Shown here piece after piece: positions 249 to 56,809 of a stretch of DNA of 64,000 nucleotides (its first letter is position 1; each line of letters starts with the position of its first letter). The notes beneath the pieces were generated by a model that ran no database searches, had not been told where the DNA came from, and saw only the letters and a list, made by a program, of their open reading frames with translations. Source of the stretch: a virus; the IMG/VR virus record IMGVR_UViG_3300029448_007456, positions 1 to 64,000 of that record; one strand, given 5' to 3'. A program made the translations under genes and the position numbers.

Positions 249-533
249 TTATTCTCCAGCCTTTGATATTGTAATGTAATATTTCGATCCTTCAAATGTA
301 AATGAATCATCTGCACTATCGATTTCAGCACCCAGTGTTGCAAGACTTTCTTGGATGTTGGATTTGATAGCAAGGATTTTTTTTGCATCTGCTTCACCAA
401 GTTTTTCTGCCTCAGCTGCAATGTCATCTAATGCTTTGTAGAGTTGACCTGAACGTTCTGGTGATGCTGTGAGGTCAATAAGATCTAACTTGTTGGTGAT
501 GTTTTTGAGTGTGTCTGCGTATTTGTTAGTCAT
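249..533 (-). CDS. Hypothetical phage protein
   Basis: ORF 249..554; likely start MTNKY at 533, overlapping the upstream stop. Confidence 0.5.
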   Translation of the reverse strand: MTNKYADTLKNITNKLDLIDLTASPERSGQLYKALDDIAAEAEKLGEADAKKILAIKSNIQESLATLGAEIDSADDSFTFEGSKYYITISKAGE

Positions 534-23553: not shown

Positions 23554-24147
23554 TTAGGTAAACGCTGTTGCGAGTGTGCCATCACTGAAGTTGACACCGG
23601 TCACATACCAAAGAGCGTCTGTGATACATACATAGTTGAGCATGCTACCAAGGAAACGTCCTTTTGTGTCAGCACCAGCAACAAACTGGTGATCAGCCGC
23701 TGCCGGGATGTCTAGTCCAAGTGTTGCACCTGCGTTAGTAGCCACTACACTACCCACGTTGTCCTTATCAATCATAATAAGGGCGCCTTGTAGCACATCA
23801 GATGATGAAGCTGCGTTGACTGTGAATGTGTTTGATGTCACAGTGGTTCCTAAGTGGAAACTGTAACATAAACCAGCTGTTGCCGCTGGAAGTGTTACCA
23901 CACAACCTGCCGCCGCATTGATAGTAAAAATACTACCTGACTGTGCGATTGTTGGAGCTAGTGTTGCGGCAGTGCTTGCCACAATGTTTTGCTTTAAGTT
24001 AAGTGATAAAGGCACACCACCTGCTGTTGAGCCATCTGAGATAAAGAACTGATTGGAAGAATCATCGAAGAATAAATCTCCGTCTTGACCTGTGTGACTT
24101 GCACGAGCCTGTGTTATAACCTTGGCGTGAAATTTACGTGTTGCCAT
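23554..24147 (-). CDS. Virion structural protein (putative decoration/fibre)
   Basis: Ala/Thr-rich; VTLPAATAG; strong SD; late promoter and structured leader. Confidence 0.55.
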   Translation of the reverse strand: MATRKFHAKVITQARASHTGQDGDLFFDDSSNQFFISDGSTAGGVPLSLNLKQNIVASTAATLAPTIAQSGSIFTINAAAGCVVTLPAATAGLCYSFHLGTTVTSNTFTVNAASSSDVLQGALIMIDKDNVGSVVATNAGATLGLDIPAAADHQFVAGADTKGRFLGSMLNYVCITDALWYVTGVNFSDGTLATAFT

Positions 24148-24168
24148 TTTGTTTTCTCCTTATAAGAA

Positions 24169-24237
24169 GTCCAATGTACGTTTTAGGTACTACGCGGAGG
24201 TCCGCATAAGTCTTACATCCTGTAAGCTCTATTAGAC
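24169..24237 (-). ncRNA. Putative structured 5' leader (four-way junction)
   Basis: P1 GUCUAAU/AUUGGAC enclosing CUUAC/GUAAG, UAUGCGG/CCGCGUA and GUAC/GUAC hairpins, between TAAATA (24242-24247) and SD. Confidence 0.55.
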
Positions 24238-25627: not shown

Positions 25628-25909
25628 ATGTTCATCAAAGAAACCACAGAAATACACCTACATCAACGCGAATCTAAGTTGGGCAACGTTCATAATTTCA
25701 AACGCAGACGTAGTGTGTATCACTTCAAATGTGACTGCTGTGATAAGGAGTTCATGCGTGACAAATCCAAAGTAACACCCAGCAGAGCATCTAATAATTT
25801 TCATCATGTGTGTGCCAAATGTGATGTCCATAAATATGCTCAGCAAGTAGGCGTCAACATGCGTAAGATTTACAAATTAGATGCCAGTTCAATAGAGGTC
25901 AAAATATAG
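25628..25909 (+). CDS. Cys-rich hypothetical protein
   Basis: CDCC...HVCAKC; TAAATA at 25603-25608. Confidence 0.6.
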   Translation: MFIKETTEIHLHQRESKLGNVHNFKRRRSVYHFKCDCCDKEFMRDKSKVTPSRASNNFHHVCAKCDVHKYAQQVGVNMRKIYKLDASSIEVKI

Positions 25910-27768
25910 TGTCAAAACAAAACATTTATCTGTGCCAGTTTTCATCGTGTTATCCTGGTGCTAGAAAGATATTGTATTATCCTTACAGCGTTGGCATGAT
26001 TTGGAGTTATGCTAAAACGATACCGGAAATCGATCAATCATTCCATTGTAAGTTTTTTCTGGAGAAAAAAGAATTCACAGAGATCATAGACAGACTGGAA
26101 GATCCTGCATTGATCGGATTGTCTTCATATGTGTGGAACCACAACTACAATCTTAAACTTGCTGAAATGATTAAAGAAAAATATCCAGATTGTCTCACTG
26201 TGATTGGTGGCCCTAGTGTGCCTTTCAGAGACAAAAACTTCCTACAAGACCATTCCTACATTGATTTTGCAATATATCACGAAGGTGAACTTGCATTCAC
26301 AGACCTACTACTTCACATCAAAAAAAACAAACCAAAACATGATATTCGAGGCATAGGATTTATAGACAGCAACGGAGAAATTGTAGCCAACAAGGCCGAA
26401 AGGATTCCTGATCTTGATAACATCCCTTCACCTTATTCAACAGGACTTTTTGATGAACTCACAGAAGAATACAAAGACACAGACATAATATTAAATGTGG
26501 TAACAGAAACCAACAGAGGTTGTCCATATTCATGCACATTCTGTGACTGGGGAAATGGTACTCTTGGCAAAGTGCATCAAATGGACATATGTAGAACTTT
26601 ACAGGAACTTGATTGGTTCAGTGAAAACAAGATTGAGTATCTGCACATTGCTGATGCAAACTTTGGACTAAAACGTAAAAAAGACTTAGACATAATCGGA
26701 TATGCGGCAAAATTAAAACGCGAAACAGGATTTCCAAGAACTATCAATTATACCTTGAGTAAAAAATTTTTTCCAGAACATTTGGAAATTGCAAAAGTTT
26801 TATTAGACAATCAAATGATGAGACATTTCACACTAAGTCTTCAAGACAGACACGATGATGTTTTAGATGCTATCAAAAGAAAAAACATAGATCATGACTC
26901 ATACATGAACATCAAAGATATGTGCGATGAAAGAAATATTCCAATGTGCACCGAGTTGATGATTCCATTACCCAGACAAACATTTGACAGTTTTATGGAC
27001 CAAATAGAATTTTTGATAAAACACAACATATATCCACATTTTAGTCCCACCACTATTCTTCCTGGTGCTGAAATGGCCGACCCAGAATATCAAAAAAAGT
27101 ATGGAATGAAAACAGTATTAAGTGCCATGAAACACAGTGAATATGCAGAAGAATATGAAGAAGTTGTGATTGAAACAAATACAATGAAAAAAGAAGATAT
27201 GAACGAAGCACTGATCTTGGTTTGGTTGATTGATGTATTTCAATCATACGGATTTGCTGACATAGTTTGCGACTTTTATTGTAAAACAGAAAACAAAAGA
27301 TTAAGAGATTTTTATCGTTTGCTGTTTCAGTTTTTTGTTGATAAACCAGACAGCATGTTGTTTAAGTATTTTGATCCAGTTAAAGATCATGTCAATACCA
27401 AAGACACCTATAAATTATATCCAGGTAAAGATACAGAAGGAATAATACAAGAAATAGGATATGATTGCAGAGAACAATTTTTCAAAGAATTTGAAACATT
27501 CATGCACACTGTGATTCCAGAACAATACATCAAAGACTTATTGGCCATACAAAAAGTAAGGCAAACACATTCGTATGACAAAACAGAAGAAATAGTACTA
27601 TTAGATCAAGATGTTTATGGATATACCAAACACGAGTCCGAACTAGCGCCAGCCACATACAAAATAAAATACAAACCCATCGAAAAACATTTCGAATACT
27701 ACTGCAATTTTATGGTGCACGGGGTAATGTTCAAAAGATGGAAACCTTTAGAAATAAAGAAAATTTAA
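25909..27768 (+). CDS. B12-binding radical SAM protein (class B-like)
   Basis: IGLSSYVWN, VIGGP, EGE; ETNRGCPYSCTFCDW. Confidence 0.88.
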   Translation: MSKQNIYLCQFSSCYPGARKILYYPYSVGMIWSYAKTIPEIDQSFHCKFFLEKKEFTEIIDRLEDPALIGLSSYVWNHNYNLKLAEMIKEKYPDCLTVIGGPSVPFRDKNFLQDHSYIDFAIYHEGELAFTDLLLHIKKNKPKHDIRGIGFIDSNGEIVANKAERIPDLDNIPSPYSTGLFDELTEEYKDTDIILNVVTETNRGCPYSCTFCDWGNGTLGKVHQMDICRTLQELDWFSENKIEYLHIADANFGLKRKKDLDIIGYAAKLKRETGFPRTINYTLSKKFFPEHLEIAKVLLDNQMMRHFTLSLQDRHDDVLDAIKRKNIDHDSYMNIKDMCDERNIPMCTELMIPLPRQTFDSFMDQIEFLIKHNIYPHFSPTTILPGAEMADPEYQKKYGMKTVLSAMKHSEYAEEYEEVVIETNTMKKEDMNEALILVWLIDVFQSYGFADIVCDFYCKTENKRLRDFYRLLFQFFVDKPDSMLFKYFDPVKDHVNTKDTYKLYPGKDTEGIIQEIGYDCREQFFKEFETFMHTVIPEQYIKDLLAIQKVRQTHSYDKTEEIVLLDQDVYGYTKHESELAPATYKIKYKPIEKHFEYYCNFMVHGVMFKRWKPLEIKKI

Positions 27769-49178: not shown

Positions 49179-49278
49179 GTCTCCTTGCTTTGTTCTACCC
49201 CTAGGTGGCATTCGGACTATAACCGTATCAAGTAATGTGAACGAATTTCACGTCGCTTTCCCACTATGCTTTTAGGAA
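49179..49278 (-). ncRNA. Cobalamin riboswitch, class IIa (AdoCbl-variant)
   Basis: CCUAAAAGCAUAGUGGGAAAGCGACGUGAAAUUCGUUCACAUUACUUGAUACGGUUAUAGUCCGAAUGCCACCUAGG...GCAAGGAG; near-identical in layout to the env8 HyCbl riboswitch. Confidence 0.93.
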
Positions 49279-49823: not shown

Positions 49824-51350
49824 ATGATTGATTTCCTATTAATCACTGGCCCTGTGAGAGACTTAACTTTTGCACCAATGGCACTAGCACAGTTAAAAAG
49901 TATCAGCGAAGCGGCTGGATTCACATGTAAAACCATAGATTACAATCAAAAATACTTTCATCACCAATGCAACAAAGACAAAAACAAGTTTTATGAACAA
50001 ACCAAAATGTTTAGAAACACTTTGCCACTGACCTATGATGAAATTGCCAACAGTCATTGTGGTACTTGGTTGGCACATAAAGTAATACAAGATGTCAAAA
50101 AATACAATCCTAAGACAGTTGGGGTGAGCAGTTTTAGTAGATACAACAACATATCTTGCGTGTTGATCTGTAAAATTATCAAACAGCATTTTGCACACAT
50201 CAAAATTATTATTGGTGGATATGGTCTACACAATCCCCTAAATTATCTAGATGCCTTTGATGCAACTCTACAATCACAACCCGAAGTTGGCGAGTTACTC
50301 AAAGTCAACAACTTATGTGACACCTATATTATCGGTGATGCAGAACACAAATTGATAGAATGGTTGAAAGATCACACAGTGGATTATTCTGGATTGAACA
50401 AAAGGATTATTGATGCCAATTGGACTGATACTCCTTATGCTGACTTCGAGGATCTCGACATAGAAAATTACGACTATCACAAAGGATTAATACTACCAAT
50501 GACTGGCAGTAAAGGATGTGTAAGAAAATGCACTTTCTGTGACATCCCACATAACTTTGGTAAATTTTCGTTCAAGTCAGGAAAATCAATAGCAGATGAA
50601 GTGATGCATCTTTATGAACACTATGGAGCCAAAACAATTTATTTTACAGATTCGCTGGTGAATGGCAGCCTCAGTGCATTCATTGATTATGTAGAAACTT
50701 TAGCAGAACTAAAAGCAAAGAAAGGGTATGACGATCTAAGATGGACTGGACAATACATTGTGAGACCAGCACATCAAATTCCTGATCCGGAAAATTATTA
50801 TGCTCTGTTGAATGAAAGTGGAGCAGAAGGACTTACTATAGGTATTGAGTCTGGCAGTAACAAAGTTTTGGCTGAAATGAAAAAACACTGCACTGTGGAT
50901 GATATTCTCACTGAAATCAATTATTTTTCCTCACATGATGTGTCTTGTGGTATATTATTGTTTCCTGCATTTCCATCTGAGACTAGACAAGATTTTTTAG
51001 CCACAGTGAAAATGTTGAAAAAATTACAACCATATTGGTGCAACGGTACAATAAATCTTGTAAACTTCAACACATTTTATGGCAATGAAAATTACAGTGA
51101 ATGGGGTAAAAAGACAGAACAAGACGGCATGTATTCACATCCCAATGATCATAGTTTATGGTGGTATAAAAATAATCCAAAACTAGATTACAAAGAGATT
51201 GTGTTTAGGAGACTGGTATTGAATAAGTTGGTTGAAACTCTCAATATTCCAACCAATCACGAATATGACTACATGACCCAAATTCATAATTATTTTACAA
51301 CAAACATAGGAAAGGTAAAAAAGTTTCATGCTGACATTAAAAAACATTGA
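49824..51350 (+). CDS. B12-binding radical SAM protein
   Basis: APMALA, VGVSSFS, IIGG, GDAE; SKGCVRKCTFCD; IGIESGS. Confidence 0.85.
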   Translation: MIDFLLITGPVRDLTFAPMALAQLKSISEAAGFTCKTIDYNQKYFHHQCNKDKNKFYEQTKMFRNTLPLTYDEIANSHCGTWLAHKVIQDVKKYNPKTVGVSSFSRYNNISCVLICKIIKQHFAHIKIIIGGYGLHNPLNYLDAFDATLQSQPEVGELLKVNNLCDTYIIGDAEHKLIEWLKDHTVDYSGLNKRIIDANWTDTPYADFEDLDIENYDYHKGLILPMTGSKGCVRKCTFCDIPHNFGKFSFKSGKSIADEVMHLYEHYGAKTIYFTDSLVNGSLSAFIDYVETLAELKAKKGYDDLRWTGQYIVRPAHQIPDPENYYALLNESGAEGLTIGIESGSNKVLAEMKKHCTVDDILTEINYFSSHDVSCGILLFPAFPSETRQDFLATVKMLKKLQPYWCNGTINLVNFNTFYGNENYSEWGKKTEQDGMYSHPNDHSLWWYKNNPKLDYKEIVFRRLVLNKLVETLNIPTNHEYDYMTQIHNYFTTNIGKVKKFHADIKKH

Positions 51351-54017: not shown

Positions 54018-54532
54018 TATACTTTTAATTTAGCATAAGATTGTTGGACTGCTTGAGTTTGTGCCACAGCATCTGTAAGTGCATTGTGTTTGCCTTCTAT
54101 CTTTACACTGACATCAGCAAGATCAAACAGTGTGCGTGTGTCTCTCACTTCCCAAAACTTCCAAGTGACTGCTTGTTGCAATGATCGACAGACATCTTCT
54201 ATGATCACAACATCAAAAATTGCGCCATGACTCCACACATTAGAAGTGCCAAGGCCAAATGTATATAATTTTTTCATTGCATCTTTAAGATCAATTCGAT
54301 CATCACCTTCACCGAATGCATCTTCTTGTATCTGTTTGTCTTGTTGGCTCCACCAACCAAGTGTGTCTTCATTGATCACTCTGCCATAACTTTCTTGTGT
54401 TTCAAGAATAATTCTTTCATAATAGGTAGACTCTATATCTGTTGCATGTGGATCAAATCTACATGCTCCAATGGTCAATATGGCCGCATTGGGCGATGTT
54501 GCCAGTGTTTCTAAATCAATCATTAAATGCAT
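54017..54532 (-). CDS. DEDDh 3'-5' exo(ribo)nuclease
   Basis: MIDLETL, WSHGAIFD, RDTRT, HNALTDA. Confidence 0.85.
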   Translation of the reverse strand: MHLMIDLETLATSPNAAILTIGACRFDPHATDIESTYYERIILETQESYGRVINEDTLGWWSQQDKQIQEDAFGEGDDRIDLKDAMKKLYTFGLGTSNVWSHGAIFDVVIIEDVCRSLQQAVTWKFWEVRDTRTLFDLADVSVKIEGKHNALTDAVAQTQAVQQSYAKLKV

Positions 54533-54569
54533 AATTTGAGTATATAAGGAAAAAAAGATACTGTCAACA

Positions 54570-54786
54570 CTGCTTGGAGGGCCTTGCTATGAACTCACCC
54601 CCAACGTCCGGCTAGCAGATCACATCATCTCTATGAAGTTTAAATGTGAGCCTACTTCCAACCATCCCCTTGCAAACTTAGCCATTGGGCCATCTAAAAC
54701 AAGGTCATGTGCGTTATCCCCCTGCCGAAGGATTATTCCGCCACAAGCTCTAAAAAGTTGCAACTAATTAGAATGCGTTGTTCAGT
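54570..54786 (-). ncRNA. Putative ~200-nt structured non-coding RNA
   Basis: GC-rich ORF-free block with own TTGACG-16-TATTAT promoter; multiple helices (AUCCUUC/GGGGGAU, UCACAU/AUGUGA, UUGGGGG/CCUCCAA). Confidence 0.6.
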
Positions 54787-54892
54787 AATAGTATAATAGC
54801 ACTTTTATTAAATGCGTCAACCATATAAAAAATCATTGTTTTTTGCAGTTTTTTTGCCTGGAAAATCTTAATCCATAAATATTTGACTTATC

Positions 54893-56809
54893 ATGCTTAA
54901 TTTAGTGTTAGCACAACCTGGTTTCAGTTGGGGACCATCTCATCTGAATGCTCATTATCTTCCTTATTCAGTTGGTTGTTTGTGGGCGAAATGTCTAGAC
55001 AATCAAACAATTGTTGAAAATGTTGAACTTTTAGACATGATTGCTGTGCGTGAAGATATTCAACACTTTGTTGACAAATATGATAAAATTGATGTTATTG
55101 GTTTTTCTTGCTATGTTTGGAATTACAATTATGTCAATGCTTTAGCCAAAGCAATCAAACGCAAGTTTCCTGAGTGTGTTGTGGTTTTCGGAGGCCCAGA
55201 ACCAGAACACAGTGATCAAGACATATTTGTCAATAAACCTTGGCTTGACTGTGTGGTGGTGCAGGAAGGCGAAGTTAGTTTTGAAAGAATTCTTGAATGC
55301 TTGATTACTAAAAAAAGTTTGGAAACAATTCCTGGATTGGTAATCAACAAACGGGGTCAAAGACTGGTTACACCCATATCACAAAGAATAACTGATCTTG
55401 AGTCCTTGCCTTCACCCTACATCAAGGGCGTGTTTGATCATTTGTTTCACAAACACCCTGATATCACTTGGACAGCCATAATGGAAACCAACAGAGGTTG
55501 TCCTTACAAATGCACATACTGTGATTGGGGTAGCCTCACATTAAGCAAGATCAAAAAGTTTTTGCTGGACAAAGTGGAACAAGAAATCAAATGGATGAGT
55601 GATAAAAAAATAGACTTTGTTAACATAGCAGATGCCAACTATGGCATTTTCAAAGAAAGAGATTTAGCCATCACACGACTATTTGGCAAATATAGATCAA
55701 TCACTGGATGGCCAAAAGCAGTCACAACCAATTGGACAAAAAATGCCAAGAAGCATGTGTTGGACATTGCTCAAGAATTCAAGGATCAAGGCATTGCAAA
55801 CAGTGTGACAGTCAGTTTACAGAGTCTACACGATGATGTGTTGGATGCTGTTGAAAGGAAAAATTTTGAACTCAACAATATCGAAGAAATGTCCATGGCT
55901 TGTTTTGAAAAACAATTACCAGTGGCTGTTGATTTAATTTTGGGATTGCCTATGGAAACAAAAAAATCTTGGAGGCAGACATACTACAAGTTATTTGATC
56001 TAGACATTCATCAAGATTTTTACACACATCAAGCCATGCTGTTGGAAAATGCACACATGAATCAAAATCAATTGCATCAGTATGGTATGGAAAAATTTAC
56101 AAGGCCCATCAAGTTTACTGAAGACAATATGCAACACACTGAATACGCAACCTTTGTCAAAAGCACAAACACAATGACGTATGATGATATGATTGACTGT
56201 GCAATGCACACCAATTGGATTTATGCTCTGCATCACACTGGCCTAAGTTCTGAGCAGAGCAAATTTTTGCACAAACACAGCGGGATACCTTATGCAACTT
56301 TTTACAATGGTCTGATTGAATTTTTGTTGCAACATGATTTTATGCACAATTGTTATCAGCAAAGCGTTGAGCAAATCAAGATGTCCTACAGTGATATAAA
56401 CCAACCCACTTTGGAACAAATTGACCTTAGCCTAAGTGGTGAGTTTAATATACTTGAATGGAATATTATTAATAAAAAGATTGAAACTGATATACAAAAT
56501 TGCATCAAAGAGTTCATTGACACACGATTTACAATTGACAAGGATCTAGTTGATCAGTTGGACGTATATGCACAACTCAGTTACTTGACATTTGAAAATC
56601 ATACGAAGTTTGATCAACTGTCACATGAATTTGATTATAATTTTTATGAGGTCAACAATTTAAATGCTGACATGGCAAAAGGCAAACATACATATGTTTT
56701 TAAGAAAAAGTTATCACAGACTTTTGAAAACACTGTGGACTATGCAAATTACATGATTGTGCGAAAACGTAACATTCCTTCAAAGAACATCATCACACAA
56801 CAAGATTAG
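54893..56809 (+). CDS. B12-binding radical SAM protein (paralogue of 25909..27768)
   Basis: LPYSVG, IGFSCYVWN, FGGP, EGE; ETNRGCPYKCTYCDW; TAAATA at 54876-54881. Confidence 0.88.
   Translation: MLNLVLAQPGFSWGPSHLNAHYLPYSVGCLWAKCLDNQTIVENVELLDMIAVREDIQHFVDKYDKIDVIGFSCYVWNYNYVNALAKAIKRKFPECVVVFGGPEPEHSDQDIFVNKPWLDCVVVQEGEVSFERILECLITKKSLETIPGLVINKRGQRLVTPISQRITDLESLPSPYIKGVFDHLFHKHPDITWTAIMETNRGCPYKCTYCDWGSLTLSKIKKFLLDKVEQEIKWMSDKKIDFVNIADANYGIFKERDLAITRLFGKYRSITGWPKAVTTNWTKNAKKHVLDIAQEFKDQGIANSVTVSLQSLHDDVLDAVERKNFELNNIEEMSMACFEKQLPVAVDLILGLPMETKKSWRQTYYKLFDLDIHQDFYTHQAMLLENAHMNQNQLHQYGMEKFTRPIKFTEDNMQHTEYATFVKSTNTMTYDDMIDCAMHTNWIYALHHTGLSSEQSKFLHKHSGIPYATFYNGLIEFLLQHDFMHNCYQQSVEQIKMSYSDINQPTLEQIDLSLSGEFNILEWNIINKKIETDIQNCIKEFIDTRFTIDKDLVDQLDVYAQLSYLTFENHTKFDQLSHEFDYNFYEVNNLNADMAKGKHTYVFKKKLSQTFENTVDYANYMIVRKRNIPSKNIITQQD

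Follow-up and report, generated by a model that had tools for sequence, protein, structure and literature searches.

The manA RNAs (Rfam family RF01745) were classed as riboswitch candidates located upstream of open reading frames (ORFs) (Weinberg et al. 2010, PMC2864571). For 15 years manA was an orphan riboswitch candidate, and a preprint of 2026, not peer reviewed, now reports RNA-only cages: in vitro, canonical manA RNAs assemble into decamers, octamers, and a cage of 60 subunits (Ren et al. 2026, bioRxiv 10.64898/2026.07.01.735769). These assemblies are built of pentamers that are joined through kissing loops; their core is conserved, and their periphery varies (bioRxiv 10.64898/2026.07.01.735769). 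RNA-only homo-oligomers are also formed by GOLLD, ROOL, and OLE, which are large structured RNAs, some of them phage associated (Kretsch et al. 2025, PMC12286853). We describe here a phage locus whose largest ORF-free gap probably holds a free-standing RNA gene on the minus strand, with a sigma70 promoter of its own and an uncatalogued single-core variant of manA as its product. Together with its relatives, the locus provides a natural test set in which the question of leader or particle can be put to a short, defined RNA.

The gap RNA has a good deal in common with manA as represented by RF01745. Both have their home in marine T4-like phages and lie a few tens of nucleotides before a start codon, and both show a hairpin P0, a junction closed by P1, GAAUAA and UAA strands around P2, and a G-rich P5 before the 3' strand of P1. 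However, where manA has a branched P3 domain and a consensus P4, the gap RNA has two long, unbranched hairpins; it does without the short linker that connects GAAUAA with P2 in manA, and its ends are joined by an additional helix of 11 pairs. A further difference is that a promoter of its own precedes the RNA described here and that the next gene is separately promoted. With GOLLD, ROOL, and OLE the likeness is an analogy of kind only. Those, too, are large structured RNAs, partly phage associated, and encoded by stand-alone genes, but their length is much greater, and neither by sequence nor by model was a match to them obtained here.

The stretch of DNA that was analyzed, referred to below as the window, comprises 64,000 nucleotides (positions 1 to 64,000 of IMG/VR record IMGVR_UViG_3300029448_007456). 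The complete record is 114.8 kb long and has a CheckV completeness estimate of 34%, which suggests that the genome of the source phage is well above 300 kb in size. The phage is a large, uncultured, and distant marine T4-like virus without a close isolate, and it is not a known cyanophage. A T4 gp9/10-like baseplate gene is present, and its nearest matches among isolates, confined to the N terminus, are from cyanomyoviruses and the Methylophilales phage Melnitz. BLAST searches of isolate phages at the DNA level with the gap, a 10-kb stretch, and a related RNA (L083) returned no match. The window encodes three B12-binding radical SAM enzymes (25909 to 27768, 49824 to 51350, and 54893 to 56809), and two Rfam families match elsewhere in it at gathering score, an AdoCbl-II cobalamin riboswitch (49198 to 49278, minus strand, 78.4 bits) and a freshwater-2 RNA (24145 to 24227, minus strand, 68.3 bits).

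The gap RNA and its close copies

The earlier note had singled out this gap as the largest ORF-free stretch, richer in GC than its surroundings and equipped with a sigma70-type promoter and several predicted helices, and on each of these points it was correct. The gap (54533 to 54892, 360 nt) is the largest in the window in all six frames, with ORF cutoffs of at least 50, 60, and 80 amino acids. The GC content is 46.3% in the RNA segment (54559 to 54787), compared with 38.0% in the window, 38.6% in the downstream exonuclease gene, and 24.8% in the spacer from 54788 to 54892. The promoter, TTGACG-16-TATTAT, is found on the minus strand. For the minus-strand transcript of 54787 to 54559, the predicted fold is closed, at -73 kcal/mol, and has several helices, most of them with a pair probability above 0.9. 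A terminal GGGGG/CCCUC hairpin that had also been proposed is real and corresponds to P5 (54602 to 54577), but the end of the RNA had been placed too early. The RNA extends about 18 nt beyond P5 to take in the 3' strands of P1 and the closing helix, and it thus overlaps the -35 box of the exonuclease gene promoter, which sits within the closing helix. The features of the locus are collected in Table 1.

Table 1. Elements of the RNA locus and neighboring genes, in window coordinates
Feature	Position	Strand	Basis or remark
Downstream gene, Rv2179c-like 3'-5' exonuclease, 171 aa	54017..54532	-	Pfam PF16473, 133 bits, from residue 1; PHROG 255
Exonuclease gene promoter, TTGACA-17-TATACT, then 6 nt, then ATG (leaderless geometry)	54539..54567	-	11/12 consensus matches
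Run of seven U, 2 nt past closing helix, possible termination site	54550..54556	-	Read from the sequence
Structured RNA, about 229 nt, single-core manA-type variant	54559..54787	-	Fold; conservation; sub-threshold manA match
P5 hairpin (54577-54602), followed directly by P1 3' strand (54572-54576)	54572..54602	-	Fold; manA alignment
P4, long hairpin of 13 pairs with variable loop	54614..54656	-	Fold and comparison of eight copies
P3, two-tier hairpin	54668..54704	-	Pair probability 0.95-1.0
P1 5' strand (54744-54748), junction core (GAAUAA side, UAAC side), and P2 hairpin	54711..54748	-	manA model alignment
P0 hairpin, 6-nt palindrome UUGCAA in apical loop (54758-54763)	54749..54772	-	Loop invariant in 8/8 copies
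Closing helix, 5' strand; pairs the two ends of the RNA	54775..54787, partner 54559-54570	-	5 + 6 pairs, probability 0.97-1.0
RNA gene promoter, TTGACG-16-TATTAT, TG before the -10 box	54793..54820	-	10/12 consensus matches
Divergent neighbor, B12-binding radical SAM enzyme, 638 aa	54893..56809	+	Insertion relative to most sister loci

In the predicted fold, P1 closes a multi-helix junction and P2 consists of a short helix, an internal loop, and a hairpin. P3 occupies the place of the branched domain of canonical manA, and its inner hairpin is common to a more distant relative, L151. The single-sequence folding z-score of the minus strand is a modest -1.5 (plus strand, +1.2), so thermodynamics alone is no proof of structure, and the case rests on conservation and covariation among sequences.

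Close copies were sought around homologs of the exonuclease and then by pattern scans, and the sequences obtained came from marine metagenomes and one viral contig. Tara Oceans was the source of the sister contigs L163, L164, and L166. Seven further near-identical copies were found, making eight with that of the window. Across the eight, mean identity was 95.9% for the RNA, 79.3% for the exonuclease gene, and 72.2% for an upstream gene of 80 amino acids, and conservation of the RNA was near total over the whole 229 nt, the peripheral helices included. Judged from these alignments, the RNA is demonstrably under very strong selection at the nucleotide level. What variation there is centers on the stem of P0, which is the most variable part of the RNA, and on the loops of P4 and P5, with the P4 loop holding the sole indels (3 nt and 1 nt). 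All nine substitutions within helices keep a standard pair, for example, by a change from A-U to G-U or from G-U to A-U, and paired cells make up 98.6%, compared with 38 to 46% in controls with slid partners. The closing helix has 98.9% of its cells paired and a single A-U to G-U change; P5 has one G-U to A-U change, and P1 has one U-A to U-G change. Pairs changed on both sides were absent among the eight close copies. A model built from them, R1, gives the window RNA 282.8 bits and detects it as the only copy in the 114.8-kb record.

Promoters, transcript ends, and neighboring genes

A dedicated host-type (sigma70) promoter would drive minus-strand transcription of a folded RNA of about 230 nt. 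The predicted start, at about 54786 to 54787, is the first base of the closing helix, and this agreement, together with the promoter itself, supports stand-alone status. Both promoter hexamers are kept in the sister copies, in a surrounding spacer that diverges. For the 3' end, formation at the closing helix and the U-run may be envisaged, or else processing. The U-run could end some transcripts; it is present in L212, L221, and L252 and missing from copies of the L004 type. A terminator scan reported none between the RNA and the exonuclease ATG, 27 nt downstream, and read-through into the exonuclease gene, which is possible, would therefore yield an exonuclease mRNA that begins with the RNA.

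The exonuclease gene has a consensus promoter in leaderless geometry. L177, L212, L221, and L252 preserve its -10 box and the distance of 6 nt to the ATG, with a variable spacer. The same geometry recurs in the window. Eight genes, all on the minus strand, have TATA(A/C)T exactly 6 nt before the ATG (ATGs at 54532, 52490, 44403, 41553, 34861, 30889, 17812, and 11876), and in seven of them a TTGAC(A/G) -35 box is located 17 nt upstream. Compared with these eight cases at 6 nt, other spacings from 2 to 11 nt are represented by 0 to 2 cases. The 6-nt geometry points to what looks like a class of leaderless early mRNAs made from consensus host-type promoters.

The main rival to a free-standing gene is a cis-acting leader, in which the RNA would be a riboswitch-like or structural 5' untranslated region of the exonuclease mRNA (of a radical SAM mRNA in sister phages) that controls transcription, stability, or translation, as first proposed for manA. 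We consider this unlikely. The RNA is oriented like the next gene in all eight close copies, and the exonuclease ATG is 27 nt away with no terminator in between. However, the exonuclease gene has its own 11/12 promoter, in a leaderless geometry common to seven other genes, which counts against a leader, and the window offers no Shine-Dalgarno sequence at the exonuclease start that the RNA could sequester. Canonical manA RNAs in viral contigs mostly lie 10 to 50 nt before an ORF start (median, about 39 nt), and manA is classed as a riboswitch candidate (PMC2864571). Against this stand relatives of the window RNA that lie within same-strand tRNA arrays (L170, L182, and L225/L244) or, in the case of L219, face the end of a convergent gene for a family-A DNA polymerase. 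At these places there is no protein gene to regulate, which again argues against a leader. The gene that follows the RNA is thus not always one of the same transcript, as seen in L170, L182, L225, and L219 and, given the separate promoter, in the window. The run of seven U after the closing helix counts for a leader, but it is missing from the L004-type copies. A group of relatives represented by L083 has a terminator-like alternative hairpin, followed by 6 to 8 U, that uses the 3' strand of P1 and so competes with P1 in the manner of a riboswitch; the two folds are nearly equal at -57.6 and -56.7 kcal/mol. Near-total conservation over all 229 nt, peripheral helices included, is a further point against a leader.

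The neighborhood of the RNA changes among the sister phages. In four sister copies, the next gene is a different one, encoding a radical SAM enzyme of 339 amino acids and beginning about 150 nt downstream. In the window and in L252, another radical SAM gene has been inserted upstream of the RNA; in the window this is the gene for the B12-binding enzyme, whereas in L004, L155, L163, L177, and L221 the RNA and the 80-aa ORF have no such gene between them. Despite these insertions, the RNA and its promoter keep their place, with the 80-aa gene on one side and the exonuclease gene on the other, and that they are unchanged while the neighboring genes change also speaks against a leader. In sum, the RNA's own promoter, its paired ends, the separate promoter of the next gene, and the location of relatives in tRNA arrays or beside convergent genes argue that at least the branch to which the window RNA belongs is free-standing. 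A free-standing RNA of this type would act in its own right and not as the leader of the exonuclease mRNA.

Several side observations concern these loci. Across sister phages, different radical SAM genes have been inserted on either side of the RNA (window, 54893 to 56809, plus strand; L004, 1498 to 2517, plus strand). In L182, a promoter with 11/12 matches, TTGACA-16-TATACT (492 to 519, plus strand), is located in the tRNA array between a tRNA-Lys and the manA-like RNA, about 30 nt before the RNA. In the group of L083, L292, and L179, one record with the L083-type RNA is classified as a provirus, and another occurrence is on a contig of an Enterobacterales metagenome-assembled genome; different small genes lie downstream, and a tRNA-Cys is found within 0.3 to 1.8 kb.

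Relation to manA and to divergent relatives

At gathering score, no Rfam family matched at the locus. With a relaxed threshold, RF01745 aligned from end to end with 54567 to 54770 at 16.7 bits (E, 0.061), for a gathering score of 55.2, and the sister copy L252 and the RNA L154 reached 24.9 bits (E, 0.0025) and 20.6 bits, respectively, both below 55.2. The fit is good at P0, P1, the junction strands, P2, and P5. It is poor at P3 and P4, a region with gaps, non-standard pairs, and low posterior probability in the alignment and with two unbranched hairpins in the fold. The junction strands GUG-C-GAAUAA and UAA-G that flank P2 are present and align with the most conserved positions of manA at a posterior probability of about 1. 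Also present are the closure of the junction by P1, the placement of P5 directly before the 3' strand of P1, and the 5' hairpin P0.

Divergent relatives were gathered with a pattern taken from the window RNA's own core, which returned many chance matches as well. The pattern yielded several further groups of structured RNAs, among them bridging RNAs that score 51.9 bits (L151), 49.7 bits (L083), and 46.2 bits (L222) on RF01745, with E values of about 1e-9 to 1e-11, all below the gathering score. It is unexpected that a pattern from the window RNA only should pull out manA-type RNAs if the two were unrelated, and we infer a distant membership in manA. On this evidence, the window RNA is a distant, sub-threshold, uncatalogued single-core member of the manA superfamily and not a new class. 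Canonical manA was not found by R1 or by a sequence-only profile of the variants, so that the link to manA rests on the Rfam model and the intermediates. When the manA model was run on the window's own record and 50 related large-phage records, only the record of L083 matched. An exact 15-mer scan of viral contigs gave 58 matches, nearly all of them due to chance. The Rfam manA model misses a sizeable share of the family.

It is improbable that the RNA, while structured, is unrelated to manA and represents a truly new family with a convergent or chance likeness. Such a reading would accommodate the low score of the window RNA (16.7 bits; E, 0.061), the misfit of P3 and P4, and the missing matches between variant-built models and canonical manA. 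However, RNAs found with a pattern from the window RNA alone match manA at E values of about 1e-11, which would otherwise be extremely unlikely, the order of helices is identical, and the positions shared are the most conserved ones of manA.

The earlier view of the RNA has to be amended at this point. Its claim that the RNA belongs to no known family did not hold, since RF01745 is a distant relative through intermediates at 46 to 52 bits. A scan against Rfam, which had been named as a check, did return nothing at gathering score, but it gave the sub-threshold manA match, so there is a family link in a weaker sense. The proposal of a stand-alone noncoding RNA is favored by the RNA's own promoter, the separate exonuclease promoter, and the contexts of relatives, yet not as an RNA of unknown family. 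The RNA had not been recognized as a tRNA or tmRNA, and a scan of the window for both found none. A test for self-cleavage had been suggested as well, but none of the results lends support to such an activity. A partial tmRNA match of 12 bits (54796 to 54855) falls on the promoter and spacer and was taken as chance.

Model R1 also detects other groups of relatives, among them L151 at 40.6 bits; because the core was forced in the pattern, R1 scores of the divergent relatives are inflated. In an alignment across groups that was fitted to R1, and in which pair counts are biased toward that model, 92.9% of the cells are paired and 46 of 64 pairs show changes on both sides. None of 500 shuffles matched this, and slid controls gave at most 19 pairs. 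In the stem of P2, the fitted alignment shows covariation from C-G to G-C at two pairs. An independent check on this structure comes from three RNAs of the L166 group that were folded alone. They have unrelated sequences and show the same order of helices, including the closing helix and P0. As far as comparison of sequences can establish it, the gap RNA is a real gene, structured at the RNA level.

That the gap holds no RNA gene and instead has a role at the DNA level (as divergent promoters, an origin, or a region bound by proteins) or encodes a small protein is hardly credible in spite of its location between divergent genes, the two promoters inside it, and overlapping short ORFs of 44 to 47 amino acids, as the many G-U pairs in its helices are workable only on the minus-strand transcript and thus make the structure specific to that RNA, the plus-strand fold is no better than shuffled sequence (z, +1.2), substitutions preserve RNA pairs, and the element matches a model of a structured RNA. 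With regard to coding potential, L155 and L163 have lost 1 nt, which puts the only sense ORF out of frame, and none of the ORFs spanning the element persists among the copies.

Possible self-assembly and the surroundings of canonical manA

The window RNA shares with the self-assembling manA RNAs (Ren et al. 2026) the core of the family, as well as a core fold that is kept while the peripheral helices differ. The contacts of the self-assembling RNAs are L5-L7' and L8-L9' kissing loops and a GNRA loop-receptor interaction, and they are formed in helices that are missing from the window RNA. The sole candidate contact seen here is the palindromic loop of P0. The loop is invariant in spite of the variability of its stem, which exceeds that of every other part of the RNA, and the L166 group has a different palindrome, UGAUCA, of which a variant in one member still self-pairs via G-U. 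The invariant palindrome UUGCAA fits a self-contact, which is only a lead. More speculatively, and by analogy with canonical manA, the window RNA may work as a homo-oligomeric particle in which the P0 palindrome is one self-contact. Other loop-loop contacts do no better than chance: the best complementarity, which links the internal loop of P3 to the loop of P4, is 5 nt, and half of the shuffles reach 6 nt.

A broader proposal, which we regard as doubtful and offer tentatively, is that the manA superfamily contains a branch not yet filed, marked by a GGCGGAAUAA-type core, an end-joining helix, and a palindromic P0 loop. Its members would be independent RNA genes across unrelated marine phages, often in tRNA arrays, and in infected cells would form oligomers or cages made of RNA only. 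If this were true, manA-type RNAs would be phage-encoded RNA particles and not riboswitches.

Two observations were made on canonical manA in viral contigs. About one-tenth of the canonical matches directly adjoin a tRNA on the same strand (L339, L354, L365, L382, L414, L419, L343, L391, and L446), with a tRNA-Asn or tRNA-Gly starting about 175 to 188 nt after the core motif or a tRNA-Thr ending 20 nt before. For these RNAs, the arrangement fits co-transcription and processing with the tRNAs, not the leader of a protein gene. Directly 3' of many canonical manA RNAs, before the next ORF, there is a conserved hairpin that ends in a U-run (e.g., L347, L351, L356, L360, L374, L378, L383, L384, L390, and L394).
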